Source: Escherichia phage vB_Eco_mar004NP2
Reading direction: 5' to 3' (one strand)
Length of the DNA stretch: 64,000 nucleotides
Sequence record: OR896837.1
Shown: one piece after another, positions 21,086 through 64,000 of the stretch
How positions within the stretch are numbered: position 1 is the first letter of the stretch
How the letters are laid out: every line of letters starts with the position of its first letter
Translations under genes and position numbers: made by a program
The notes under the pieces: generated by a model
What the model was told of the DNA's origin: nothing
Databases searched by the model: none
What the model saw: the letters and a program-made list of their open reading frames with translations, nothing else

Positions 21086-22904
21086 GACACTAAAATTTAG
21101 TAACGTTATGTCTTACGGTAGGGACATCGTAATTCATTTCGATAAGAATCCAGTTACTCAGTTAATCGGAGGAAACGGTCTAGGGAAGTCCACTATTGCT
21201 ACTGTTATTGAGGAATTGTTTTATAGCAAGAACTCACGTGGTATCAAGAAGGACGCCCTATTCTCTTGGGGTTCTCCGAAGAAAGAGTATGATATGCATG
21301 CTTACTTCTCGAAAGATGAAGATGAGTATGAATTGCATAAAGTAGTTAAATCAACTGCTAAGGTTACACTGATTAAGAATGGAGAAGATATCAGTGGACA
21401 CACAGCAACTCAAACGTACAAGATGATTGAAGAGATTATGGGTGGTGACTTCCAAACATTCACTAAACTAATCTATCAATCTGTTGGTTCCAATCTAGAC
21501 TTCCTCAAAGCAACAGATGCAACACGTAAGGCTTTTCTTGTTAACTTGTTCAATCAAGAACAGTATAAAGAAATGTCAGAAACTATTAAGGCTGACCGTA
21601 AAGAAATAGCAAATACCTTAAATAATTTGCAGGGCCAAATGGCTGTAATTACAAAAATCCTTAATGGAAAGAATAACTTGGGAACCTTACAAGAACCAGT
21701 CGAAGTACCAGAATTTGATGAAGAACCATTAGCACAAGAACTTACAGAATCGAAAATTAAGGCGGCATTAGCCAAGTCTCAAGAGGCTAATATTACTAAA
21801 TTGCGTAATTTGGACAAAGCTGTACAAGTTGCCGAACAATCTTTCGAGCCTTTCAAAAATTTGCCTGCGCCCACCGACCAAAATGAAGAGATCTCGAGTG
21901 TTACGCGTGACCTAACGATTGTGACCTCACGTGCGGGCGAAGTCAAGAAACGTTATCAGAAGTTCAAGCAAGAGGCTTCAAATACTGAATGTCCTACTTG
22001 TGGTACTCACCTGGATACAACTGCTGCTCAAAAAGCAATGGATATGGCTAGAACAGAATATGATCCTCTGTTCAAAGAGAAGCAATCTCTTGAAACCAAG
22101 CTAGAACAGCTGAAGAAAGAACAACTTGAGTACACTACGTATATTAGAGCAAAGGATGCTTTGGATAAAGCAGTAGCAGCTAGAGACGAGTTCAAAAATT
22201 CAATGAGTGATGCTTCTTTTGAAGAACTCAATGTGCAAAACCTACAGGTGCAAATACGACAATTAGAACAGGAAATTGCTGATGGACGTTCTAAGGTTGC
22301 AATTGCCAAAGAGCATAATGCAAATGTTGAATTAGCCAATGCAAAATATAAAGCGAAACTAGAACAGATTGAGAAAGCTGAGGCAGAAATGTCTGAGATT
22401 ACTTCCAAACTGGATGAAGTATCAGAAGCTGTTGCTGATCTCGATATTCTGATCGCCGCATTGAAAAATCTGGTAGGGTATAAGCTAGAGCATAGTGTGA
22501 AAGTATTTGAAGAACTAATTAATAAATACCTTTCCATTATGACTGGTGGTAAGTTCGCACTTGGATTTGAACTTGATGAAACAAAATTACAAGTAGTAAT
22601 CTTCAATGATGGAAACCGTACCAGTATGGAGAACTGCTCTACTGGTCAGCAAAGTCGAATCAACCTAGCAACTCTGTTAGCTATTCGAATGCTACTAACA
22701 TCTATTAGTAAAGTTAATATTAATCTTCTATTCCTTGATGAAGTAATTAGCTTTATTGATACGAAAGGACTTGACACCCTTGTTGAATTATTAAATGAGG
22801 AAGAAAGTCTAAACTCTATCATTGTTTCTCATGGGCATACGCATCCATTGGCCCATAAGATTACTGTCAAAAAAGATGCAGAAGGATTTTCCTACTTAGA
22901 ATAA
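21066..22904 (+). CDS. SbcC/Rad50-like ATPase subunit
   Basis: Walker A GGNGLGKST, long coiled coil with CPTCG zinc hook, Walker B LLFLDEV; start taken at ATG 21066 (MSKITIK). Confidence 0.8.
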   Translation: MSKITIKTLKFSNVMSYGRDIVIHFDKNPVTQLIGGNGLGKSTIATVIEELFYSKNSRGIKKDALFSWGSPKKEYDMHAYFSKDEDEYELHKVVKSTAKVTLIKNGEDISGHTATQTYKMIEEIMGGDFQTFTKLIYQSVGSNLDFLKATDATRKAFLVNLFNQEQYKEMSETIKADRKEIANTLNNLQGQMAVITKILNGKNNLGTLQEPVEVPEFDEEPLAQELTESKIKAALAKSQEANITKLRNLDKAVQVAEQSFEPFKNLPAPTDQNEEISSVTRDLTIVTSRAGEVKKRYQKFKQEASNTECPTCGTHLDTTAAQKAMDMARTEYDPLFKEKQSLETKLEQLKKEQLEYTTYIRAKDALDKAVAARDEFKNSMSDASFEELNVQNLQVQIRQLEQEIADGRSKVAIAKEHNANVELANAKYKAKLEQIEKAEAEMSEITSKLDEVSEAVADLDILIAALKNLVGYKLEHSVKVFEELINKYLSIMTGGKFALGFELDETKLQVVIFNDGNRTSMENCSTGQQSRINLATLLAIRMLLTSISKVNINLLFLDEVISFIDTKGLDTLVELLNEEESLNSIIVSHGHTHPLAHKITVKKDAEGFSYLE

Positions 22905-31380: not shown

Positions 31381-34217
31381 TCCACAGACTGTTCTCCATC
31401 ATCCCCTTCAGCCCTAATACGAAAATACAATTTTCTATTTATACCTAGAGCACCGCTGTTCTGGAGAGCAAAGTCTGCCTTATTATATGTTAATAAATAG
31501 TCATAAGTATACTGATTTTCAATACGTACACTTCTTAACATCCTATTTTGCGAATCGTGTATTTCAAGTGTATAAAATATACTCTCTATTATATCTTCTT
31601 CAGGTATTTTATCCCAAGCTAGTTTTACATCTGGGCCAACAAACTCAGTTACATCTCCAGAAGCAGTATTAGTTACCATAAAATTAGATACTACACTAAG
31701 GTTTTTAGCAGAGTTAAGTTCTATAGACAGAGTCACCGGGGAACTTCTTCTACCATTAATATCTACTGCTCTTATCTCAAATATAGCCAGACCTGCTGGT
31801 TCCCCAATTATTTCTTGGATCATACGTTCGTTAGGATTGGTCTCTAACTGTTGTACTATGTAAGGTTCGGCATGGCCTGAGTGCACAATAGAGTAATAAA
31901 CTACATTATTGGTTAGACTCGGAAGCCAGGATAACTCACCATTTTTACCTATAGAACCAACTAAGCCATCAGGTGGCTTAGGAGTATACTTAAAATCTCT
32001 AGGAGGAAGAACGTTGTTACTAATATCTGGTATATCATTACCACTATTATCTATTTGATCAGAGTTGATGAATACATCTTTTCCATACTCCTGTAGAGTA
32101 ACATTTATCTTTCCTTCCCTAGAGTTTTCGACTTCATCTACTAAAAAGTACTTCTTATCCCATCCGTAACGGTCGTATGTAAATGCAATAGCATCATTAG
32201 GCTCAATACCAATGAATTGATATGGTAAAGAAAATGAGAGGGTTCTAGAATACCTAGATTTCTTAAGTTCTCTGTCTGCAAAACTTCTAGCAGTATAGTA
32301 GTTAGTTATATTTGCAAAAGATAATTGTAATTTTTTGTCTAGGTTCTTGTCCTGTTCCTTATACTTGGAGTTATAGAATGTAATGGAATTAGTTTTCCAG
32401 CTAAGGGCTGGATCTACGATAGATGCTTGAACTGAGTTGAATTTATTTCTACCAGTAGTATCTGATAGCTCCAAATCACCGTAAGTATCTAGAAAATTAA
32501 TCTCTAATGGAGTATTAGAGTATTTTTCTACAGTAATCCTGTACTGGCCAGATAAGTTGTTAATAGCCCCACCGTAGGACTCTAATAAACCTTGCACATT
32601 TTTAAATACTGATTCAGATGTATCCAGAATAGTATTCATTTGTACTATTTGTCTATTTTCTGCTAGTGGATCAGTCCACCCAACGTATCTCCAATATGGC
32701 TGCCAAGATACCTGATAGGATTCATCTATAATATCTAAAATAGCTGCTTCCTGTATTAATTGCTGAAGAGGGAACTGATCAATGGTAATATTAGCACCGT
32801 ATCTATCGGAGGTTAAGTAGTCAAGTGTTTGCCAAATACCATTTAAACTAGTACTATTAGCAGTTACTCTACCATCAGAATGATAGACTTTTACTTTTTT
32901 ACCTTGAATTTCAGCACTAACTTCAGGAATCTCAGTCCTATTTTCATTAATAGTGAAGCGCACCACTGCGTATGCAGTATCTAGTAGTTTATACCTAGCA
33001 TCCCAGTACTCCGGTCCATTGCCATTCATATTCTGAAGGTAGAACCCACGTTCTTTCGCTATGTCTACTAATACTTCAGAAGCCGTTTGATCAGCTTTTC
33101 CATGATAAGTCCAAATCCTTATATCACCATTACCATCATTATACTTATATTCCTGACCATGCACAGAAGGACTACTAGAAGATATTCCTGATGCTATTCT
33201 TTGCATGGTGTCTCCTGCTACTTTTTTAACACCGAAACAGGTTCTAGCAGAGCTATCATTAGAGTCCATACAAATCATAGGGTTATCCCCGAAGGAAAAG
33301 TCAAGAAAACCGTCTATCTCCCCTTCAGCAAAGGCGTATACTACATAAACTATATTAGGATTGTGTAGTTCCGTATCCGCAAAAATAGGTATTCCTGGTA
33401 TTTTCTGTACACCATAAACTACTGGTATATACTTAGCAGCAAGGTTAAAATCTATATCTACTTCTTTAGTAACAGTCTCATAATACTTTTTAAGACTATA
33501 GCTTCTAGATAGGCCAAATAGCTTTTTCTTAGACTTTAGCTTGTATCTCTCTTCCTGTACCTGATATTTTGCTAAAATAGAGATACTTTTATTAGCATGA
33601 AAGAACCCATAATCTTCTTGGTACTCAAGTCTTTTAGCCCCGTTAGATGGAACTAATTGCCCTGCTACAACCTCAAGCCCTCTATGAGAAGCATCATCAG
33701 TAAATCTACCGTTAACCCTATCAAAGTCATAGAATTGGTTAGAACAATTCCAAGTAATTGTGGAGGTTCCAACCCCAGAAGTACTAATGTTGTCCTTAAT
33801 ACCCCCACCGGTAATTCTCCCTCTAAAGTATAATAAAGGGCCATTTGTGTCTGGGTCTACAGGTAAAATAGAACCATCCTCTGTAATAATTGCTTGGTGG
33901 ATTGTTACTATTCTATCTAAAAAGGACACACCATTCTGCACTAATTTCAGTACTTCATCCTGCGCTGTACCCGTAATAGTAAAAGATAGACTGCCAATAG
34001 ATAAATCTCTATTTTGTTTATGTGTGCTAATGGACTTAACCTTACCGGCCTGGTACAAAATACCATTATATAGTACATCTCTAAAATAATCAGTTAAATA
34101 AATAAAAGCAGTACTAGTACCAGTAGAGCCAGGTAATTCTAGGGAAATTAGACTAGCAGTTTTTATTCTGCTATTATTTTTTAAGTAGTTTCTAGCACTA
34201 TCTAGTATTTTCTTCAT
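31365..34217 (-). CDS. baseplate hub protein (pb3-like)
   Basis: 950 aa; by T5 gene order and size (pb3 about 949 aa as I recall). Confidence 0.55.
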   Translation of the reverse strand: MKKILDSARNYLKNNSRIKTASLISLELPGSTGTSTAFIYLTDYFRDVLYNGILYQAGKVKSISTHKQNRDLSIGSLSFTITGTAQDEVLKLVQNGVSFLDRIVTIHQAIITEDGSILPVDPDTNGPLLYFRGRITGGGIKDNISTSGVGTSTITWNCSNQFYDFDRVNGRFTDDASHRGLEVVAGQLVPSNGAKRLEYQEDYGFFHANKSISILAKYQVQEERYKLKSKKKLFGLSRSYSLKKYYETVTKEVDIDFNLAAKYIPVVYGVQKIPGIPIFADTELHNPNIVYVVYAFAEGEIDGFLDFSFGDNPMICMDSNDSSARTCFGVKKVAGDTMQRIASGISSSSPSVHGQEYKYNDGNGDIRIWTYHGKADQTASEVLVDIAKERGFYLQNMNGNGPEYWDARYKLLDTAYAVVRFTINENRTEIPEVSAEIQGKKVKVYHSDGRVTANSTSLNGIWQTLDYLTSDRYGANITIDQFPLQQLIQEAAILDIIDESYQVSWQPYWRYVGWTDPLAENRQIVQMNTILDTSESVFKNVQGLLESYGGAINNLSGQYRITVEKYSNTPLEINFLDTYGDLELSDTTGRNKFNSVQASIVDPALSWKTNSITFYNSKYKEQDKNLDKKLQLSFANITNYYTARSFADRELKKSRYSRTLSFSLPYQFIGIEPNDAIAFTYDRYGWDKKYFLVDEVENSREGKINVTLQEYGKDVFINSDQIDNSGNDIPDISNNVLPPRDFKYTPKPPDGLVGSIGKNGELSWLPSLTNNVVYYSIVHSGHAEPYIVQQLETNPNERMIQEIIGEPAGLAIFEIRAVDINGRRSSPVTLSIELNSAKNLSVVSNFMVTNTASGDVTEFVGPDVKLAWDKIPEEDIIESIFYTLEIHDSQNRMLRSVRIENQYTYDYLLTYNKADFALQNSGALGINRKLYFRIRAEGDDGEQSVEWASI

Positions 34218-34937: not shown

Positions 34938-37900
34938 TTAAGAATTTCCTAATGTTTTCAGACTAGTACCGTTCTCATTCAGAGCTAATTCCACTGCGTC
35001 TCTTAGAGCACTACTATTACTAGAAGCAAACTCTCTAAAACTTGCAGCATCCATAGCACTAATATTCAGGATGATAGGTCTTCCTGAAGTTGAGTTAGAT
35101 GAGGTTTTTAGCTCATCATTAGGCGTAGCTTTCATAGGAACCATAGGGGTAACTACTTCTGTACCATGCTCACCCATTTGATAGCTAACCCCAGGGTACA
35201 TATTACCACCTTCGGCACGCGGCACAAATGAATTAGCATTACCAATACCTTGATCACCACGTACATAAGATAGTTCTCCAGCATTAGCAGACATAGATAC
35301 ATCAATGTTCTTCTGACGCTCTCCAAGAGTTAAATAACTAGTGGTATCAGCTCCAGAATCTGCAATACTTGACATACTAGAGGCAGAGGATGCCTGCGCT
35401 AATGCCAGAGCACCTGCTAATCCTGCCGCTACCATCAGAGGGATAGAGAACGGGTATGGTACAGCTGTTGCTGCCTGCATAACTGCTACTGCAGTTTGGA
35501 TGATAATCCGCTTCTTAGCTGCATCTTGTTGAATCTTCAGCTTTTCAGCTTCTAGCTTCTTCAATTTAGCTTTAGATGCTTCTGATTTACCATCACGTTT
35601 CTGCTCCGCTGCGATAGCTGCATCAATAGCACTAACCTGTTGACTAGTACTATACTGAATCATAGAAGATACAGTTTGCATGCCAGAAGCAATCAAGGAG
35701 GTAGTATCTAGGGATCCCTGAGAGAACTGAATCATAGCGTTAGTTAAGTTACCCATACTTTGAGCCACAGCGGTTGCTTCAGAATTTAATTCAGATAGCT
35801 TAGAGATTGCTTGGTCATAAGAAGCCATTCTATTTTGCATATCAGCAAAATCTTTATCTTCTCCAGATAATCCCGTTGTAGGAGTGTACACAGCACCTAC
35901 AGAGGATCCTACCTGTTGTTGCATTTGAGCATTACGTTGCGCCGTTAAAGCAGACATTTGAGCCCTTGTCTTAGCTATTTCAGCATTCCAGCGCATTTGC
36001 TCGTTAGCATTACCTTTGGTAAGTTCCTTCATCTGAGTATAAAAATCTAACTGCATTTCCATTTTTTGCATTTCCCCTGCCAGAGGGAACATGGAAGTTA
36101 GAGTATTTTCAAAGGCTTCTTGCCTTTTACTGGTCATTTCAGCTTGCTGATCCTGACGGAATTTCCATATTTCACGTTCAATTTGAGCTTGAGAACGTCT
36201 AGACTGTTCAGCCTCTTTCTGTTTATCAGCCTGTTTTGTATACCATTCGTACTTCTCTTTTTCAATGGTCAATTCAAGATTTAACTGTGCTAGACGATAC
36301 TGAGTATCTGTCATAGTACGGTTATTTAAGAGAGCTATCTCACGATCTACGCCAAGAATTTTATCTGTGTAATCCTTGACCTTCTTCTGAGCTTCCATAC
36401 CCTGATTAGTAAGTTTAAGTTTCTCCAGCTGAATTTTTTCAATTTCTTTCTCAACAGCTTTATTTCCCTGGTTTGTTTGAAGAACACGGCGTAAAGCAGC
36501 TTCTTGCTCTTCTAACTGTTGGAGTTCTAAACGTCTACCAGCTTCCTGAGCCTTTTCCTTATCCTTAGTTTGATTATACACATCAGCTATTTTCTGTTGA
36601 ACTGCTAACTGATTTTTAGTTTCATTACCAGTTAGTTTAACATACTCAGATAGAGCCTGAGATGCAGTTTTCATTTCAGACAGGGTGTTATAACCCAGGT
36701 TAAGGTTTTTAACATATTCATCGGCACTCTTACCGGTACCTAAGGATAGAGATTCTATATTTTTTATAGCATCTGCCAAAGTAGCACTAGTTTTAGCAGC
36801 AGTATCTGTATTCTGAGCAACGTTCTGTATATCATTAGCTAAGTCACTAGCCGTTTTCTTAGTCTGATTGTACGCTTTCTGCTGCTCAGTTAGTCCTTTT
36901 AATACAGTAGAGTTAAAATCGTATACAGCATCAGGATCAGTAGTATCTCTCTGTAGATTAATTTGCTTCTGAAACTCTGGACTAGCCTTTGCAGCAGCGG
37001 CACCAGCAGCTTGATACGCTGATTTCCAAGCATTGAGATTCTCTGTAGAATCCTCTACTTCCTTACCAAGTCTAGTTACTTGTAGACCCATAGCTGCAGT
37101 TTCTGCTACAAATTGCTTATTGGCCTCCGAAGCACCTGCTGCTACAAGACCAACAGGAATACCTTCACCAACTTGACGTATAGCTAATTTTGTATAGAAA
37201 TCTGCTTGTTCCATTCGTTTATCAAACTCAGATTTTAGCTTATTACGCTTATCAAGAGATTCCTTATACATATCTAGAGCTTTATTATAGCCTTCTTCAG
37301 AAGCAGCTAAACTTAAAGCAACAGCACCAACGTTGGTAGGGTCTATCTGTCTATTAGTTTTTTCTTGGGCCCTAGCTGCTTCAGCAGATATAGAAGCCTG
37401 AGATGTATAAAATACTGTGTTGATAGCATCAATTACTGGCCCTAAATACTTAGCAGCAGCTTGTTGTATTTTTCTTAGTGCAGCATCTGCATTAGCAGCA
37501 AATTGCTCCCACGGAGTTGCACGTAGTACTTCATCTAGGTAGCCAAAACGCTTAGTAGATTCAGCAATTACCGCGTTAGCGTATGCTTGTTGCTTCTGGA
37601 AAGTGGTAAGACTATTAACATTATATGTTATACCTGTGTTTGCAGCATTTAACTGTTTAGCATAATCAGCGTATGCATCATTAAGACGGATGGTGACACC
37701 CAGCTCATCCAGAAGTTCGATTTCTTGTTTAGATACGCCCTTAATTACACGGTTAAGTGCATCAGTCATATCAATGCCAAGAACAGCAGCCGCACGACGA
37801 GCTACTAAACCAAATTTATTAAGTTGTTCGGCATCAAATCCATAAGCAGATGCTGAAGATGCCTGTCTCATTGCTTCCTCAAAAGAAATAGCATATCCAG

Positions 37901-45693: not shown

Positions 45694-46176
45694 TTAGCCT
45701 CCAGAAACAGTAGGATTAACTGTTACAGCACATGCAGTAGAATCCTTACTTACTTGCTTACTATCTGTTACAGTTACTTTATAAGAGCCGGCATCCTTAG
45801 CTGCTGTAGGCTTAGTATAGGTAGCTCCTGAAGCACCAGGAATAGGAGAACCATCTTTAGTCCATGCATAAGTATATGGACCAGTACCCCCAGTTGCAGT
45901 AACAGAAAGTGTTAATGCTGCTCCCTCTTCAACTGACATGCTCGCAATTAAATCTTTAGAAAGAGTTAATGGTGGAGCCGGAGGAATTGCTTTACCATAA
46001 GCCTCTACAAATTTCTTCCATACTTTACGATTAGTATGCGCAGATGAAAGCCCTAGTTCTCTACGCAGAAAAGCATAGCTAGGAACATATTTATGCGCAG
46101 CAACCGTAGCAAAGAAGATATGAGATTCTGGCAGTTTTTCACCAAAAATGGTCCTCAGACCACTATAATCAATCAT
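45694..46176 (-). CDS. capsid decoration protein with Ig-like domain (pb10-like)
   Basis: 160 aa; TLSVTATGGTGPYTYAWTKDGSPIPGASGATYTKP resembles an Ig-like domain. Confidence 0.5.
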   Translation of the reverse strand: MIDYSGLRTIFGEKLPESHIFFATVAAHKYVPSYAFLRRELGLSSAHTNRKVWKKFVEAYGKAIPPAPPLTLSKDLIASMSVEEGAALTLSVTATGGTGPYTYAWTKDGSPIPGASGATYTKPTAAKDAGSYKVTVTDSKQVSKDSTACAVTVNPTVSGG

Positions 46177-46178
46177 TC

Positions 46179-47390
46179 TTAATCTCCCTCGGTGGAACTC
46201 TTGGGTCTACCACCTTCTTGACCAGATACACCTGTTGCAGAACCAGCGACGTTAGCAGGAATACGGATCTTATTCATCTGCTCATCATCTAAAGGTTCAA
46301 GGTTCAGCTCTGAACGAGCTTCGTTACCGGTTATAATACCATTATTAACCAATGAGGTTAAATGTTTAGCCTCTGCTTCTTTATCTGGTGTTAATGCTGC
46401 GACTTCCTTAGTATTCGGAGTGATCTTATAACCAAAAAAGAAAGTAAGAGAACTAGTCAGTTTGCTCAGCATAGGAATGACAGTCATATAATAGAACAGT
46501 TCGATGTTTGGTCGAATGTTCGCATTATTACCCCCACCAAGCAACACTTGCGGAACACCAAAGGCTAGACAGATAGATTTATTAAATCCTTCAATGTCTT
46601 CCTTAAAGTCTAGATCTTTAAAGGAGGATATTTGGGAGTACGGTTTAGCTTTCATACCACCATCTAGAATCAGGACAGAAGACTGACCAGTACTAGGATT
46701 ATAATCGAGTTGTAATTCTTCTTGTTTACGCTCACGCAATTTCTTGTTCAGGATTTCATCCGTCTCAAGAATAAGACCAATCACGGTTCCGTTATCTAGG
46801 AATTTCTCTTTAAAGTTAAGCATCTTAGAACGCTTTTCAAGAGAATCAATAACAGTAGCAACACGAGATTGTCCAGAAATTTGAGAATTTGTGCCACACA
46901 CGTAACTGTTATCCTTTATGAAGATAATCTCATCTACGCGATAGTCTATCTGATTATTAAATGTAAATTTTTTGATAAACTTATTGGCATCTGCCTCGAC
47001 CTGCATAAGAGCAGCCGGGACATGGTAAAGCGATGTGCCATCCCAATAGATGTATGCACAACCTTCAAAAAGTAGGTCAGTGACTACAAGTCTACGGAAT
47101 GTGCTTATATCCATGAATGGATTAGGTCGTACATTTAAGAGAGTGTCTAGAGTCTTTGTTTTGACGCCATTAGCGTACGTAACAATATTATATTTATCTC
47201 CGACAGTATAAGAACACTCCGCCGCACTATCTATAACCATATTGGCAGTTCGATTGAGAATCTCAATCTTGCTATAGGCTTGTCCAGTGGTAAAAGGCTT
47301 ACGGTTAGTGCGATGACTAACTGGTTCCATGTCTCTTATAATACGTTGACCCGGATTTAGCTTTTCAGTAATCCAGCTTTTAAAACCCAT
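46179..47390 (-). CDS. portal protein (pb7-like)
   Basis: 403 aa, between terminase and protease/capsid genes. Confidence 0.7.
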   Translation of the reverse strand: MGFKSWITEKLNPGQRIIRDMEPVSHRTNRKPFTTGQAYSKIEILNRTANMVIDSAAECSYTVGDKYNIVTYANGVKTKTLDTLLNVRPNPFMDISTFRRLVVTDLLFEGCAYIYWDGTSLYHVPAALMQVEADANKFIKKFTFNNQIDYRVDEIIFIKDNSYVCGTNSQISGQSRVATVIDSLEKRSKMLNFKEKFLDNGTVIGLILETDEILNKKLRERKQEELQLDYNPSTGQSSVLILDGGMKAKPYSQISSFKDLDFKEDIEGFNKSICLAFGVPQVLLGGGNNANIRPNIELFYYMTVIPMLSKLTSSLTFFFGYKITPNTKEVAALTPDKEAEAKHLTSLVNNGIITGNEARSELNLEPLDDEQMNKIRIPANVAGSATGVSGQEGGRPKSSTEGD

Positions 47391-47842
47391 TATAAGAACC
47401 TTGCGAATCCTGATTTTGTTTCAGTCTTGACTTGTGTCTTTTCTTGAGGATTCTGTAATTTGTCTTTCTGCTTTTGAACCCACGCTTTTTGCTTATTAGC
47501 AGAAAATAAAGGAGGTTCTTTTGTGTAAACCTTATGTAATAATTGGTGATGGTGCTGGCACAATGTTACCACGTCCCTAACTAACTCATGCTCATATTTC
47601 TTGTAGAATGCTTCCCTATTTGAAAGGACGATATTCTCATCAGTGAAATCCAGCTGGAGTTCTTTAGCAAATTTTTTTATTAGCTGAGATATAGTATGAT
47701 AATGGTGAAGTTCTAGGTCTTCACTACTACCACATATAGCACAGCAACCATCCTTACTATACCTAGATTTTATACCATCCCTCATTATGGAAATGGCATC
47801 ACGTTTGTACTTAGTATTAGTGGCCATAATCCTCCAATCCAA
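47390..47842 (-). CDS. HNH endonuclease
   Basis: CAICGSSEDLELHHYH...LCQHHHQLLH is an HNH signature. Confidence 0.65.
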   Translation of the reverse strand: MDWRIMATNTKYKRDAISIMRDGIKSRYSKDGCCAICGSSEDLELHHYHTISQLIKKFAKELQLDFTDENIVLSNREAFYKKYEHELVRDVVTLCQHHHQLLHKVYTKEPPLFSANKQKAWVQKQKDKLQNPQEKTQVKTETKSGFARFL

Positions 47843-48491
47843 AGCTACTTAGAAAGATTACTATATCCTCAGGAGCAACATTAAAAAATTCCGTGCTTCC
47901 TGTAAAATTAGAAAACCCACAGTTTTTATTATAATATTCTCTGTGAACTTCCTTTTCTAAATCTAAAGCAGTCTCTCTATCTGGCAGATGATACATGGTG
48001 AACAAGTATAGGTCAGAAAATCCAGATTCTCTTTTAACTTCATTCAGCCGTTTCTCAGGGTATAAGCTTATGCCTACTTTAGTACCACTAGAGGAGGACA
48101 TGATATAGAGGAATCCGCCATTCTCCCACTTAAGAGAACAATAAGGACATCTCTTACCTTGAGTCAATCCATCTAAGGTAATTAAACAGTCATGCCCATT
48201 ATTGCAGCGTAGATGTAGTTTTGTTTTAGCATTAGTATAGCTGCTTAACAGAGTATACCCTATATTAGATATTCTGTTATTAACTTCATCTAACGATATT
48301 GTATTATTGGAGCAGTGTGGACAACCTCTCCCCATATGGAGTATAGAATGTGGTGTTGCTTCCCAAACATGTGCTCTCTGGCATTTAAATACTGTTTTTG
48401 TACGTTGGTTTACATACTCACCGACAATTTGGATTCCACGATCAGCTAATCTAATATTTATATCTTTTATTGTTAGCTTTTGTCGACCCAT
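47817..48491 (-). CDS. putative GIY-YIG-superfamily (T5orf172-like) endonuclease with two CPxC zinc ribbons
   Basis: CPHCS and CPYCS motifs; C-terminal GFLYIMSSSSGTKVGIS...R...E resembles a GIY-(x10)-YIG-like core. Confidence 0.4.
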   Translation of the reverse strand: MGRQKLTIKDINIRLADRGIQIVGEYVNQRTKTVFKCQRAHVWEATPHSILHMGRGCPHCSNNTISLDEVNNRISNIGYTLLSSYTNAKTKLHLRCNNGHDCLITLDGLTQGKRCPYCSLKWENGGFLYIMSSSSGTKVGISLYPEKRLNEVKRESGFSDLYLFTMYHLPDRETALDLEKEVHREYYNKNCGFSNFTGSTEFFNVAPEDIVIFLSSFGLEDYGH

Positions 48492-48662
48492 AGAATCTCC
48501 TACACCCCATGTAGAGCATTAATTTTTCTTGTTTACGTTCTATTATGGGAGAAGTTCTCCCGATCAATGAATATAGTATACATAATCGTATCGAATTTGT
48601 AAAGGGGATTTTAAAATGCAGGAATGGGATACCAACTGAGTAGTATCCCTTCCTATACTTAT

Positions 48663-49979
48663 TTATTTACCACGGGAAATAGAGTAAATTCCATAGCGCA
48701 GTGCATCACAAAGGTGAGAGTTAGCATCATGACGTGGTTTTTCACGTGATAATTTTTCTTCACCTTCTTGGAAATCCCATTTATAGTTCTGCAACGCATG
48801 GATTAATGAGGAACATGAAACATCTACAATAATCTTGCCTTGTTGGAATAGCGCTTGCAAGCATGCTAGGCCATCTAGGACAGATTTTTTAGCAGGGGCT
48901 GATGCAATTTCATGTTCATAAGCTAAGTCCTGGCGGAACTGAGCTGCCGCGGAGTCAACAAAAATACGATCAACTTTATAACGATCTATACAGTGCTGAA
49001 TGTAAGCAGCATGCTGAGCTGTAGTTTTCTCCGCCTGCTGATACTCTTCTAATACATAGTAAGTATCCGTATCGTAATGATACTTAATAGTAAGAACTGC
49101 TGTAGGATCACGATAACCAACGTCGATACCAAGCAACGTTTCGAATGCTTCATCATCTTTAAAGAAATGACGCATACCCTTAAGGTCTTTAACATGGTCA
49201 ATAGCATTGAAAGTATCAAAAATCTGACCTTCAAATACAGAGAAGTCAGCTTCATATTCCTGGCGGAAGTAGTTTTTACTAACCGTACGACGTGCTTCTT
49301 CTATATCATTCAGGTCAGCACGAGGGTTATCACGATATGTACCATGAATAGATACCCAGTTAGGCAACGTATCATCAAATCCGTAGGCGTAAAACTCTTT
49401 AAACCAGTTACCTCCACGAGGTGTGGAAATAAATAGAGCCTTAGAATTAGGTTTATCTAGAGTAGGACGCAGCTGAACCCTGAAGGCATCACCACCCACA
49501 TCGGAAATTGCCGCCTCGTCAAAGATGATAAAATCATATGAACGTCCAACCGCGGAGTCAGCCTGAGCAGCGGAAGCTAGTTTAAACAGAGAACCATTAG
49601 CTAACTCAATTTCCTTATCTTTAGCGTTCTCACGTTCAGTTTGTAGGCCATATTTTTTAATAAGACCACGAATCTGAGACCATCCGATGTTGGCCAGTGA
49701 ATAGTTAGGAGCAACTACTAACACCTTCACATTAGGTTCCAGCAATTTTAGGAACCCAAGAGTATATGCGATGAAGGATTTACCTACACGGCGTGATACA
49801 CACGCCGTTACAAAACGATGTCTAGGATCCTCTAGAGCATTAATAATCGCTATTTGAGGACCATTAGGTGTAATACCTTCTTGTGCTAGTATTCCCGAAA
49901 CAGGTAGACGAAAGAAACGTTTATCTATTCCGAAATCAATAACATCTACTGTATTAACGTAAGGTCTTGATACTTCCAT
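48663..49979 (-). CDS. terminase large subunit
   Basis: 438 aa; N-terminal ATPase P-loop-like VSRRVGKSF, C-terminal nuclease-like acidic residues (FVDSAAA). Confidence 0.8.
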   Translation of the reverse strand: MEVSRPYVNTVDVIDFGIDKRFFRLPVSGILAQEGITPNGPQIAIINALEDPRHRFVTACVSRRVGKSFIAYTLGFLKLLEPNVKVLVVAPNYSLANIGWSQIRGLIKKYGLQTERENAKDKEIELANGSLFKLASAAQADSAVGRSYDFIIFDEAAISDVGGDAFRVQLRPTLDKPNSKALFISTPRGGNWFKEFYAYGFDDTLPNWVSIHGTYRDNPRADLNDIEEARRTVSKNYFRQEYEADFSVFEGQIFDTFNAIDHVKDLKGMRHFFKDDEAFETLLGIDVGYRDPTAVLTIKYHYDTDTYYVLEEYQQAEKTTAQHAAYIQHCIDRYKVDRIFVDSAAAQFRQDLAYEHEIASAPAKKSVLDGLACLQALFQQGKIIVDVSCSSLIHALQNYKWDFQEGEEKLSREKPRHDANSHLCDALRYGIYSISRGK

Positions 49980-50461
49980 TACTTCTTACCTCCAGTAGCT
50001 AGGGAAGTAATTAAGTCCATGTAGTTTTGATCCCCAGCTCCAGCAATAATATTATTCTGGATGTTGGTCTGGTTAGCTGGAGTACGGGCTGCTGCCTTCA
50101 CTTTCTCCAGTTCTACCATCATTTTCATTTCTTCCATTTTCATTTTATGTGCTTTCCAGAGAATATCCATAATATCTTGGTCAGAACCCATGCCAGTTTC
50201 TTCTAGTTCCTCTAGTTTACGCTTGATAACTTCATCCAGAACACCAAATAAACGATCTCTGTTACGGAAACCACTCTCCATAAAAATATCATTTAAGTAG
50301 TTCTTAACTTCACTACGATTCATAATATCTCGAAAAGCAATTTCGGACATCCCAAGACTACGTGCGGCAGAAGGCACATCGCTGCCACACTGTAAATATG
50401 CTTCAATTACATCCATCCCTTCAGGGGACATAAGATCTGGTACTAATACATCATTTGCCAT
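49979..50461 (-). CDS. putative terminase small subunit / DNA-binding protein
   Basis: 160 aa, HTH-like N-terminus, directly upstream of and coupled to the large terminase gene. Confidence 0.4.
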
Positions 50462-50471
50462 ATTTCCTCCT

Positions 50472-52229
50472 TTAGGTAAGGCGTTGAACTGTTACTCTTA
50501 ATCTCGGTAGGAAAACTGCACTACCTAAACTTACGTGCATAACTACCCCTAACTCTACATTTCCATTCCCCAGATTTTTAGCAGTATATATAAAACTATT
50601 TCTACTTAGGGCATTGTTAGGTGTGTACCTAAAAGCAGATGTAGTATGAAAAGGTACTAAATACCCTACTGGTAATGTTAAAATCTGGTGGAATATTGCA
50701 TCTCCATTACTATAGCTATATGCTCTTCTTCCTTGCACTTGAAACACACCGTTATTCCATGTATTAGCAGGAACACCTGCACAGTTAAGGTTACCTGATA
50801 TAACTTCAGTGGTAAGAATTACTGTAGCATTGCCACCCGGTATACCTAGCCCAATAGTTGATAAACCAACGTATCTATCCCCTGTTCCCGGGTAGCTGGG
50901 AGTAATATCATCCCCCATGTAAGAGCTACCTACATTTCCACCAAAAAGTCGTAATGGAACTGCTGATGGTCCCCAAACAACCCCGTGTTCATTACCGATA
51001 GTATTATCCCTAGAGTTTACATACCATTGCTTACCCGCTCCGAATTTGTAAATGCTAATTTGGGATTTAGCTCCACCATAGTCTACAGGAGACCATAATC
51101 CTCCATTACTAGACCCTACAAGTTCACACCTTGCCGTGGTATCCCCAAAAACCCCGGTATACGCTGCGTTATTTCCTATATACTCCATATCAGGACGGTA
51201 ACCTAGGTTACCAAAAGCATTCTGATTTATAAATTTATACCCGGTATTAGGGAGACTTACCCCTTTAATTATGAAATTAGAAGGAGATATAAGAATATCA
51301 GAACCAGTAAAGGGGTTGCCTGAAATACTCATTCCACCATTAGAGTACCTTAAATTAAGAACATACCAAATAACCTTAGTAGGGGTTATATTATACCAAT
51401 CCTGTAGTATTGTAGAGTCACCCGACTGGTTAGCTAAATTAGTAGTAGATCCCCTACAAACAAATCTGTTCCCACCGTCGTGGTACATAGTATTTACATT
51501 ACCTGGGAGCCCTTGTCTAACCCCACCGTATCCACGTATATTAGAGTTGCAAACATAAAACCAATCATGCCCTCTATGTGCTGCTCCTAGAGGCGACATC
51601 CATCCAGGATCCCAATAGTACGGGTTATTCCCATCTACAGGTACTGTGCTACTATTAGTAGGAAAACCTAATTGTGCAAAGGCTTCTGCAACAGTAACAC
51701 CTACAGGAGCTCCCGCACCAGGCCTAACTATCCCATGGTAGGTACTATGTAACGTAGTACCACCTGTACCACTCCTAGAGATAGATTCTTCGTGCCATAT
51801 CGATGGGTTATAATTATAAGTTCCAGATGCTAGACTATTACCAAATGCAAATCCACTGGTTTGAGAAACACTAGCAAAAGATCTAAAGGGGTCTGCTTGA
51901 GTGGCAACTATAGTTTGACCAACTTTACTCTGAGTACCATTAAGAAAAGCTCTGTGAGTACCATTAATCTCAATAGCAGTTAGTATAACTCTACCAGGAT
52001 CATTAGATTTAATATTTACTATATCAGGAGGCATCTGACATACGAAAAACCCATTCCCGGCATCACCTAATCCTGCCTCATAAGTACCCTCAACTAGAAC
52101 AAATGGCATATCACTATGAAAAATACTATTATTACTTGGACTATAGTGACGATTAATGTCACCCCCAGATTCAGTATTTAAAGATAGTACGGTCTTACCA
52201 TCGCTATACTTTCCAGCGAAAAAACCCAT
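50472..52229 (-). CDS. receptor-binding tail protein (pb5/Oad-like)
   Basis: 585-aa Gly/Asn/Thr-rich beta protein, divergent from the lipoprotein gene as in T5 oad-llp. Confidence 0.5.
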
Positions 52230-59552: not shown

Positions 59553-60314
59553 ATGAGGCTATATAAACCAGGTAACGCAACCGTCTTAAAAGGTGCGCTG
59601 CGTAACCTGCTGGACGGTAGCAGAACAACCAGCATTAAACATTTTATTAACAAGGCTGAAACTATTCACCAAAACTTTTTTGGTGATTTCGATGCCTATG
59701 ATATGAATAGTTTTCTACCGTTATATAAACAAGGGGCAACGCTTGTTTTATATAATCAAGATTATCAATTGCTCACTAGTCGAGGGCCGGATACTGATTT
59801 CATAATCGTAAAAGGTAGCACAGTAAAAGCCTATGATACTGGGGCAGGCTTAGAAGTTTTTTCAATAGAAAATTATGAAGCCAACCCCAATGATCTTTAT
59901 GATATTGAAAATTTTCTTGATTCATTTTGGCGTTATTTATCAGTTGGCTGGAATCGGTCGGATTGTGACGGGTATCGTTTCGCGGCTGTAATGGCCTTTG
60001 ATGATAACGGTAATTTTTTGTTACCGTCGGAAGTGTACCCTTATGTATATGAGGGGGATATTGAAAGCGCGGGCTTTTCTTTCTGGAAGGAGGAAGATCA
60101 GCCTATTGACAACACGGAAAAACATGCTGTAAATTCTAACACTCAAAGCGTTAACACTCAAACTACTGAAAACAAAGGAAATAATACCATGACCAAGATC
60201 GCTAATATCGTTGCCGCTAATAAATCCGCTGTTGTAAATGCTGCAAAACTGGAAGCTGGCAAAATTGCATTGACTCAAATCACGAAAGTAGCGGCTAAAA
60301 ACCGCCGTTTATGA
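59553..60314 (+). CDS. hypothetical pre-early protein
   Basis: 253 aa; RBS GAGGGAGG. Confidence 0.5.
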   Translation: MRLYKPGNATVLKGALRNLLDGSRTTSIKHFINKAETIHQNFFGDFDAYDMNSFLPLYKQGATLVLYNQDYQLLTSRGPDTDFIIVKGSTVKAYDTGAGLEVFSIENYEANPNDLYDIENFLDSFWRYLSVGWNRSDCDGYRFAAVMAFDDNGNFLLPSEVYPYVYEGDIESAGFSFWKEEDQPIDNTEKHAVNSNTQSVNTQTTENKGNNTMTKIANIVAANKSAVVNAAKLEAGKIALTQITKVAAKNRRL

Positions 60315-62884: not shown

Positions 62885-63060
62885 TTCCATTCTTAAATGA
62901 GAATCATTATCATTCGCATTCCACTGTCTAACCGATAATCATTTCCTTTCTTAAATGAGAATCATTTCACTTTTTGAATAGTTCTCATTTCACTTCTTAA
63001 ATGAGAATCATTATCATTCGCATTCCACTTCTTAAATGATAATGATTCTCATTCAAAGTC
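62885..63060. repeat. array of TCTTAAATGAGAATCATT-type repeats
   Basis: At least four direct or inverted copies of AAATGAGAATCATT / AATGATTCTCATT; related palindromes at 53547-53568 and 62537-62560. Confidence 0.7.
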
Positions 63061-63078
63061 GCAGGGCAATTGCCCTGC
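63061..63078. repeat. perfect 18-bp palindrome
   Basis: GCAGGGCAATTGCCCTGC. Confidence 0.9.
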
Positions 63079-63084
63079 GCTTTT

Positions 63085-63685
63085 GTGCAAATCCGACATA
63101 TGCCACCATGGATTACGCGCGGGCGTGTATGTGCGAATCCGACAATTTTTGGTAGTGTGCAAATCCGACCCCAAAAATTTTTATAGTGTGCAAATCCGAC
63201 AATGAATTTTCCCAAAAACTCCAGCAATCACGAACTGCGTTCGAATCCTGTGGGATATGTGCAAATCCGACACGGTTTTTCTAGGATTAAGATGTGCGAA
63301 TCCGACAAGATTTTTGTGACTTCGATTGGAGGGTGTGTGATTGTATAGGTTTGAGGAGAAGATGAGAGAGCGAGAGAAAATAAGGGGAGAAACTGGAGGA
63401 GCAGCATGGGTGGCGTGCAACGCCTGATTTGCTGCGTTTTTGGGAAGAGTTGAGAAGATTTGGGTTAATTTGAGATTAGTGGAGATAAAGTAAAATTTTA
63501 TTTGCTAAAGGTGGCAAAATAGCTTGACAAGTGAAAATTTTTTGTGACCCTAAAAACTCAGGCAATCATGGGCCTTCGGCCCGAAATAATGCTGCCATTT
63601 TCAGGAGATTATGTATTCATGAAAACTTAGGCGTTTGTGCAAATCCGACCATAAATTTCTAGAAACACAATGTGCAAATCCGACA
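63085..63685. repeat. dispersed array of GTGC(A/G)AATCCGAC(A/C) 14-mers
   Basis: Eight copies, at 63085, 63131, 63157, 63188, 63259, 63294, 63637 and 63672, all in the same orientation, irregular spacing, no ORF. Confidence 0.85.
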
Positions 63686-64000
63686 GTAATTTCTGGAAAT
63701 GTGTTTTCAAAAAATGTCTCCTAGAAATAACCGCCCTCCCTATAACCGCCCTGTATTAAACCGGCCTAGGATATGTAACGTTGGAGAGAAACTGCCCTAG
63801 AGTGTAAGAGTTTTCCTAGAAACTTAGGAGTCTAGAAGAAAGTGTTGTGCCATCCTAGCAGATGAGCGGCAACAGGTGTATCATCTTGAATGTAAATTAT
63901 ATGGTCAAAAAGTTTTACTTTTATTTTAAATATAAGATCCCCCAGGGTTCTCATATAGAGCTTTGCCCCCGCCAGAAGGTCTCGTGATGTTTCTAGTAAT

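Follow-up and report, generated by a model that had tools for sequence, protein, structure and literature searches.

The portal and terminase genes of Escherichia phage vB_Eco_mar004NP2 (OR896837.1) are separated by two adjacent nuclease-like open reading frames (ORFs), which raises the question of whether these are selfish homing endonuclease genes (HEGs), nickases serving the site-specific nicks of T5-type DNA, or one of each. We analyzed a stretch of 64,000 nucleotides of this genome (here called the window, to which all coordinates refer). The two ORFs placed by the initial annotation between 47390 and 48491 are indeed there, both on the minus strand, with portal on one side (46179-47390; Pfam Phage_portal, E = 1e-50) and the large terminase gene terL on the other (48663-49979; Terminase_6N/6C). 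The region is that of a T5-like phage (Tequintavirus), with nucleotide identities across 46000-50500 of 96.5% to T5 and 99.1% to SPLA5b. Both genes are of already known kinds, namely, a characterized T5 nicking enzyme and a selfish homing endonuclease gene. We consider it very likely that the first is the core nicking endonuclease SciA of T5-like phages and that the second is a neighboring free-standing HEG of the T5orf172 class, with a different biology.

The first gene, sciA (47390..47827, minus strand), encodes a site-specific nicking HNH (His-Me finger) endonuclease of 145 amino acids. The mechanically called ORF reaches back to a TTG at 47842, which is merely the first start codon past the upstream stop, and the 26-bp overlap of the two genes reported initially is tied to that codon. 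A GGAGGA Shine-Dalgarno sequence is followed five bases on by an ATG at 47827; a 438-nt coding sequence with the ATG start is found in most of the annotated relatives seen, the TTG start occurring only in the T5 record AY692264, and both the homolog alignment and the crystallized T5 protein begin with MATNT. ATG 47827 is the likely start, and with it the overlap is 11 bp (47817-47827).

The motif CxxC...HH...CxxHH that had been noted in this ORF was confirmed as C29-x-x-C32, H41-H42, and C90-x-x-H93-H94, followed by H98 (145-residue numbering), each of them either invariant among 41 homologs or conserved in at least 90% of them. As the HNH models of Pfam (E ≤ 0.1) and NCBIfam (E ≤ 0.01) in our local libraries gave no match, the HNH assignment rests on this motif, on PHROG 8048 ("HNH endonuclease"; E = 2e-7), and on identity with a solved enzyme. 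PF26848, found in newer Pfam releases, is present in all 74 of 74 SciA homolog clusters. The protein shares 143 of 145 residues (phmmer E = 1e-95) with PDB entries 9QGV and 9QGX, whose titles describe the phage T5 endonuclease SciA in complex with GCGC DNA. The protein resembles T5 SciA (T5.153/T5p149) in length, start, position between terL and portal, and zinc and catalytic residues, and it differs only by a conservative L/I exchange at residue 123 and by the engineered H42Q or H42A substitution of the crystallized variants. "Nicking endonuclease" or sciA is also the name used in UniRef and in many GenBank records. Our literature search returned no paper describing 9QGV/9QGX or the molecular identification of sciA, so for the biochemical claim we rely on the titles of the PDB entries and on early genetic work taken second-hand from PMC3517423.

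sciA matches 902 places in 900 phage records and is single copy and full length in 898 of them, with identities from 100% down to 46%. The terL-sciA-portal slot is kept in every relative examined, among phages of Escherichia, Salmonella, Klebsiella, and Vibrio (T5, HMD-P4, Gostya9, smaug, K38, Spivey, pKMKP103, Athena, and 70E34-3), and sciA also lies between terL and portal in Erwinia phage Key (PMC10194208). Its dN/dS of 0.03 to 0.15 indicates purifying selection. sciA belongs to the core gene set of the T5-like family as a whole and is not mobile. That both genes are selfish HEGs inserted between portal and terminase, a reading encouraged by the nuclease motifs in both, by a position beside essential packaging genes that is typical of HEGs, and by the several HNH homing endonucleases reported elsewhere in the T5 genome, is extremely improbable in view of this single-copy, full-length gene in a constant slot across many host genera, its purifying selection, its identity with the solved T5 nickase, and the lack of any SciA paralog within the window. 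The initial designation of a homing-endonuclease-like pair thus holds for the T5orf172 gene, an optional insert that looks mobile, and fails for the HNH gene, which behaves as a conserved core gene in 898 of 900 records.

The suggestion that nickases for the T5-type nicks are encoded here applies, conversely, to the HNH gene and not to its neighbor. SciA is most likely the phage's own nickase, a small HNH (His-Me finger) enzyme with bound zinc, for which C29, C32, C90, and H93 are the predicted ligands and H42, substituted in the deposited structures, the predicted catalytic histidine. Its expression is probably late, together with that of the head and packaging genes, and the enzyme would recognize GCGC-containing sites (consensus R/GCGCRGG) and cut one strand, which would account for the fixed single-chain interruptions that the minus strand carries in packaged DNA of the T5 type. 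The window holds six RGCGCRGG motifs against 2.1 expected, a weak enrichment, and five of the six are on the minus strand. Two of these sites are orthologous to major interruptions annotated in T5. Motif search, the features of AY543070, and context comparison place the ortholog of the T5 interruption 78573/78574 at GGCGCAGG (21864..21871, minus strand), where the nick is expected on the minus strand between 21871 and 21870; motif search and context comparison place that of interruption 121279/121280, in the terminal repeat, at AGCGCAGG (63074..63081, minus strand). The GCGC core of GGCGCAGG is invariant in six phages with different sciA alleles. The role of the T5 nicks was called unclear in 2012 (PMC3517423), and the window adds nothing new on that point.

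The genomic context of sciA also invites a reading in which SciA is mainly a terminase cofactor for concatemer cutting, of the HK97 gp74 type, with the nicks arising as a side effect of packaging. Like gp74, SciA is a small HNH protein encoded beside terminase and portal genes in an HK97-type head module. The small terminase subunit gene (49979..50461, minus strand; PHROG 3802 "terminase small subunit," E = 7e-91) is labeled sciB in T5 records, as "SciB protein" or [quoted passage not shown] and according to the T5 record annotation sciB is a second locus affecting nick formation; in addition, the nicks have been described as being made before encapsidation (PMC13250531). We nevertheless regard this reading as very unlikely. 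Aligned with the HK97 gp74 profile, SciA homologs gave an hhalign probability of 1.2% over 10 columns, in which the LCxxHH turn alone aligns, and a helical stretch of some 45 residues, inserted between the strand bearing the HH pair and the metal-binding helix, sets SciA apart from gp74. SciA as a packaging HNH of the Kala type was dismissed at the sequence level on the same hhalign result. The PDB entries have SciA on GCGC nick-site DNA rather than on genome ends, and its action as a nickase at internal GCGC sites is a further difference from gp74. Moreover, interruption-deficient T5 mutants were reported to be viable (Rogers 1979, as cited in PMC3517423), and on the strength of that second-hand report nicking, and probably SciA too, would be dispensable for packaging.

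The second gene (47817..48491, minus strand) is a free-standing HEG of the T5orf172 family, the ortholog of T5.154, and encodes 224 amino acids (PHROG 681 "endonuclease," E = 3e-60). Two CapR/DUF4379 zinc-finger DNA-binding repeats (residues ~1 to 60 and ~62 to 120), whose repeat structure is visible in the alignment, precede a T5orf172/MUG113 catalytic domain (residues ~125 to 215). CapR (PF21817; 37.9 bits, in two stretches) and DUF4379 (PF14311; 35.9 bits) both score above their gathering cutoffs, as do, at residues 126 to 211, T5orf172 (PF10544; 34.4 bits, cutoff of 20) and MUG113 (PF13455; 35.9 bits, cutoff of 22.3), which bears out the original call of a T5orf172-like nuclease with zinc ribbons. 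A model of the chain, with a low whole-chain pTM of 0.48, has in the catalytic domain the order strand-strand-helix-strand-helix that a GIY-YIG-like fold would show; a Foldseek search of the PDB with this whole-chain model gave no match at E ≤ 0.001 and so did not confirm such a fold, and a PDB sequence search gave only spurious weak ankyrin-like matches. We regard the T5orf172 domain as related to GIY-YIG nucleases on the basis of the Pfam family matches and PMC10448857. The window contains no paralog of this gene.

Several features of the gene are those already described for T5orf172 HEGs of ICP1 and of T5-like phages (PMC10448857). In T5-like phages such HEGs are abundant, lie mostly beside terminase genes, carry CapR zinc-finger repeats, and occur at recombination boundaries (PMC10448857). 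The present gene is alike in its repeated CapR/DUF4379 fingers and C-terminal T5orf172 domain, in its terminase neighbor, in its variable presence, in its decay by frameshift and deletion, and in its position at a recombination boundary. Orthologs of at least 80% identity were found in only 81 phage records, the next matches falling below 60% identity and coming from unrelated phages and other genome positions.

Variable presence is most evident from comparison of filled, remnant, and empty alleles, whose alignment delimits an inserted segment at 47828..48566 (minus strand) consisting of the HEG leader, the HEG coding sequence, and a new Shine-Dalgarno sequence for sciA. The insert is 739 nt long and stands where the empty-site allele has 18 nt, so that 721 bp are gained on balance and the interval spans 2001 bp in the window versus 1280 bp in most relatives; the left junction is precise in the alignment. 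Of 442 close relatives, only 73 have an intact copy; in most of the remainder the interval is 721 bp shorter, the behavior of an optional insert. HMD-P4 and Sepoy are examples of empty-site phages. Remnants occur elsewhere: that of Gostya9 has ACG in place of the ATG and multiple stops, that of smaug has a stop at codon 44, and both are without the catalytic domain. An ortholog with 53% identity is found in Klebsiella phages (Sugarlandvirus), in the identical slot and with the identical 11-bp overlap.

Ahead of the HEG, sciA, and portal, a scan identified a sigma-70-like promoter, TTTACA-17-TATACT (48575..48603, minus strand; 10 of 12 matches), and the insert starts 9 nt past its -10 hexamer. 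The T5 record AY692264 likewise has a putative promoter marked at the corresponding site, and the promoter sequence shows no variation across six aligned phages. The HEG appears to have entered the locus past the late promoter and ahead of the start codon of sciA, for which it supplies a new ribosome-binding site.

This position directly past the late promoter could also be taken to mean that the T5orf172 gene has been domesticated, either as a CapR-like regulator of the late operon or as a weapon that benefits its carrier by cutting rival T5-like genomes. There is a precedent in CapR, a T5orf172-type protein described as having been domesticated into a repressor (PMC8096241; PMC10448857), and the ortholog with 53% identity has been retained in the same slot in Klebsiella phages. 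Intact copies have a dN/dS of 0.07 to 0.19, indicative of purifying selection, which remains clear across substantial divergence (dS up to 0.63, dN/dS of 0.07 to 0.09). However, a gene that is actively homing should be under purifying selection as well, about 83% of close relatives are without an intact copy, decay to pseudogenes has happened at least twice, and the intact copies keep the catalytic T5orf172 domain. We therefore consider domestication unlikely and retain the interpretation of a selfish HEG.

A further comparison is with the free-standing GIY-YIG seg and mob genes of phage T4, which PMC10448857 also mentions. The intronless homing logic would be alike, in that the gene lies between essential genes, probably cuts a nearby gene in endonuclease-free relatives, and takes flanking sequence along, whereas the gene studied here belongs to the T5orf172 subfamily, has zinc fingers rather than a helix-turn-helix, and is presumed mobile from its distribution. 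Judging from that distribution, in mixed infections the HEG product would cleave alleles that lack the insert, within or close to the 5' portion of sciA. Repair by recombination would then copy the HEG plus adjoining sciA sequence into the recipient, and after homing the HEG could decay and then be lost.

The sequence of sciA itself is consistent with such a history. Its 5' half is bimodal among the matching records, with 82 at 90% identity or more and about 368 near 75%, and in the genomes that we compared directly (about a dozen) the allele of at least 90% identity accompanies the HEG or its remnant. In sciA codons 1 to 75, dS reaches 2.4, versus 0.14 in the adjacent portal gene, and in the Epseptimavirus smaug SciA is 100% identical to that of the window while terL is only 86.8% identical. 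We tentatively hypothesize, giving the idea somewhat less than an even chance, that the HEG acts on endonuclease-free T5-like phages at the 5' portion of sciA or at the junction of promoter and sciA, and that it drags a whole, strongly diverged, cleavage-immune sciA 5' allele across genera (Tequintavirus, Epseptimavirus, and possibly Sugarlandvirus). The diverged allele could instead be the product of an unrelated recombination event. If the hypothesis is true, the nickase gene would travel as the "cargo" of a selfish element, and phages with that element might be at an advantage over coinfecting relatives. The nick specificity itself would be unchanged by such transport, because the GCGC nick core is conserved across alleles; the idea that the HEG-linked sciA allele alters nick-site specificity was accordingly rejected, the core being the same in all allele types at the one site checked. 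With intact, decayed, and empty alleles and a linked divergent sciA allele, the locus offers a clean natural series for tests of T5orf172 homing.

Beyond that, the significance of the locus is small apart from correct annotation: the first gene should be annotated as sciA, a nicking endonuclease rather than a homing endonuclease, and the second as a T5orf172-family homing endonuclease gene. The T5 annotation of the second gene (T5.154 in NC_005859) is 159 nt longer, at 834 nt, than the gene in the window; the longer frame was probably opened by a 1-nt difference in the T5 leader, and it is closed in the window. The HEG leader RNA has a modest folding z-score of -2.27.

Two minus-strand ORFs lie in the region, with portal (46179-47390; Pfam Phage_portal, E 1e-50) on one side and the large terminase gene, terL (48663-49979; Terminase_6N/6C), on the other; directly past terL comes the small terminase gene (49979-50461, minus strand; PHROG 3802). 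The window is from a T5-like phage: over 46000-50500 it shares 99.1% identity with Salmonella phage SPLA5b and Escherichia phage vB_Eco_mar004NP2 and 96.5% with T5. The ORF coordinates and motifs of the initial annotation were correct, apart from a 26-bp overlap of the two genes, which rests on a TTG at 47842. The first gene (sciA; 47390-47827, 145 aa) likely starts at ATG 47827, and its overlap with the second, the T5orf172-family ortholog of T5.154 (47817-48491, 224 aa), is thus 11 bp. GGAGGA precedes this ATG, which is used by most annotated records seen (the TTG start appears in AY692264), and the corresponding residue is also the first one in every homolog and in the crystallised T5 protein. 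A perfect 7-bp stem (GGGATAC/GTATCCC, 10-nt loop; 48626-48649, minus strand) lies 14 nt past the terL stop codon and is the same in each of the six phages aligned. Lying between terL and the downstream promoter, it could serve in termination or in RNA processing; it went unflagged by the terminator scan because its loop exceeds 8 nt.

On sequence grounds, we identify the first gene as that of SciA, the T5 nicking endonuclease. A PDB sequence search returned 9QGV and 9QGX (E 1e-95), entries named "Nicking endonuclease," from which the product differs only by the engineered H42Q/H42A and one L/I difference. The CxxC...HH...CxxHH...H pattern seen earlier matches residues that are invariant or nearly so in the alignment of SciA homologs (C29, C32, H41, H42, C90, H93, H94, and H98). 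The HNH models in the local Pfam and NCBIfam collections gave no match to SciA, and PHROG 8048 ("HNH endonuclease") matched at E 2e-7; the precomputed Pfam family in 74 of 74 SciA homolog clusters is PF26848, which is missing from the local Pfam copy searched.

The distribution of sciA points to a core, nonmobile gene. A tblastn search of 50,697 phage records found SciA in 900 of them, at 902 places in total (898 hits full length), with identities from 100% down to 46%, in phages infecting Escherichia, Salmonella, Klebsiella, Proteus, Providencia, Yersinia, Aeromonas, and Vibrio. The gene lies between terL and portal in every locus opened (T5, T5_ev212, HMD-P4, Gostya9, smaug, Kenya-K38, S113, NR01, Spivey, pKMKP103, Athena, and 70E34-3), as it does in Erwinia phage Key (PMC10194208), and its dN/dS is 0.03 to 0.15. 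This universal presence refutes, for SciA, the reading that both genes are selfish. The proposed pair of homing endonuclease genes holds for the second gene, which is optional and has decayed copies, and fails for the first; the observation stands with a corrected start codon, and its interpretation was half right. Both genes are of known, described kinds, one with a solved structure.

The major-nick consensus of T5 is 5'-R/GCGCRGG-3', and nicking is affected by two loci, sciA and sciB (PMC3517423). The window contains six copies of RGCGCRGG, one on the plus and five on the minus strand, against a chance expectation of about 2.1; six were reached in 5 of 100 shuffles. Two minus-strand sites, 21864-21871 and 63074-63081, are orthologous to positions 78573/4 (in gene D13) and 121279/80 (in the terminal repeat) of AY543070, each labelled "major DNA single-chain interruption," and have contexts nearly identical to those of the two T5 sites; the window thus carries both the nickase gene and two mapped substrates. 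In six phages, among them the more distant phiR2-01, the GCGC core of the first of these sites does not vary. Of the other four matches, three are minus-strand AGCGCAGG copies (473-480, 33959-33966, and 35393-35400) and one is on the plus strand (60066-60073); they may be additional nick sites or chance occurrences. The small terminase gene is labelled sciB in two T5 records ("involved in formation of single-chain interruptions"), which suggests a functional tie between terminase and SciA nicking, one not found in the searchable literature. Only this link and the gene position speak for SciA as a terminase cofactor of the HK97 gp74 type, but a SciA-gp74 profile comparison gave a probability of 1.2%, and viable nickless T5 mutants have been reported (PMC3517423). 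As a separate observation, window positions from about 63000 to 64000 match T5 sequence inside the right terminal repeat (T5 about 121.3 kb), so the source genome probably has the repeat only once in its assembly or is permuted with respect to T5.

The second gene is best explained as an optional homing endonuclease gene of the T5orf172 family. CapR (two stretches), DUF4379, MUG113, and T5orf172 all scored above Pfam gathering cut-offs, and PHROG 681 ("endonuclease") matched at E 3e-60; two zinc-finger DNA-binding repeats precede the nuclease domain. Orthologs with at least 80% identity occur in only 81 records. The next matches fall below 60% identity, often with several to a genome and in other genomic locations, and come from unrelated phages of Staphylococcus, Streptococcus, Bacillus, and Campylobacter. 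Megablast of 47100-49100 returned 442 records, only 73 with at least 80% query coverage, and the interval measures 1280 bp in most of the records versus 2001 bp in the window. In Klebsiella Sugarlandviruses, a 53% identical ortholog occupies this slot and again overlaps sciA by 11 bp; Vibrio relatives have no insert there. T5.154 is annotated 159 nt longer, with a transmembrane-segment note, in NC_005859 (3318-4151 in our T5 locus extract) and AY692264; this longer frame is probably opened by a 1-nt difference in T5's leader and is closed in the window, and the 675-nt version is the one in AY587007 and most other records.

Aligning filled, remnant, and empty alleles of the terL-sciA interval placed the insert at 47828-48566, where 739 nt replace 18 nt of the empty allele. 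A conserved promoter, TTTACA-17-TATACT (48603-48575), precedes it; the insert starts 9 nt past the -10 hexamer and ends at the sciA start codon, newly supplying the sciA Shine-Dalgarno sequence. Remnants persist in Gostya9 (start codon mutated to ACG, many stops) and smaug (stop at codon 44), both missing the catalytic domain. Domestication of the T5orf172 gene would agree with its position downstream of a promoter and with purifying selection on intact copies (dN/dS 0.07 to 0.19, dS up to 0.63), but most relatives lack the gene and it has decayed more than once, both of which count against this reading.

The 5' half of sciA (47601-47827) is bimodal: 82 records have identities of 90% or more, and about 368 lie near 75%. 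In the genomes directly compared, the high-identity allele occurs where the T5orf172 gene or a remnant of it is present, the divergent one at empty sites. Between the empty-site phage HMD-P4 and the window, nucleotide identity is 96.7% in portal, 89.6% in the 3' half of sciA, 74.1% in its 5' half, 99% in the promoter region, and 93.8% in terL. Synonymous divergence reaches 2.4 in sciA codons 1 to 75 versus 0.14 in portal, which rules out local acceleration and points to an imported allele. In the Epseptimavirus smaug, SciA is identical to that of the window, and terL is merely 86.8% identical. This mosaic fits a transfer in which the T5orf172 gene would have moved together with flanking sciA sequence; its cleavage site and homing are features that we infer. 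The pattern agrees with the general picture in which T5-like phages carry abundant T5orf172 genes; these adjoin terminase genes most often, are equipped with CapR zinc-finger repeats, and sit at genetic-exchange boundaries (PMC10448857).

Salmonella phage Kenya-K38 presents a third state, a 262-bp terL-sciA spacer (1329-1590 in its locus extract) in which the beginning of the insert leader is retained and then gives way to unrelated sequence, and a third sciA allele whose protein is 78 to 84% identical to the other two. In the window, the leader of the T5orf172 gene begins with the hairpin GGGAGAA-C-TTCTCCC (48547-48561, minus strand), and in the minimum-free-energy fold, with a z-score of only -2.27, one part of it pairs with the Shine-Dalgarno sequence of that gene, AGGAGA (48484-48503, minus strand). 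Such pairing might limit translation of the T5orf172 gene, a limit known from some T4 homing endonuclease genes.
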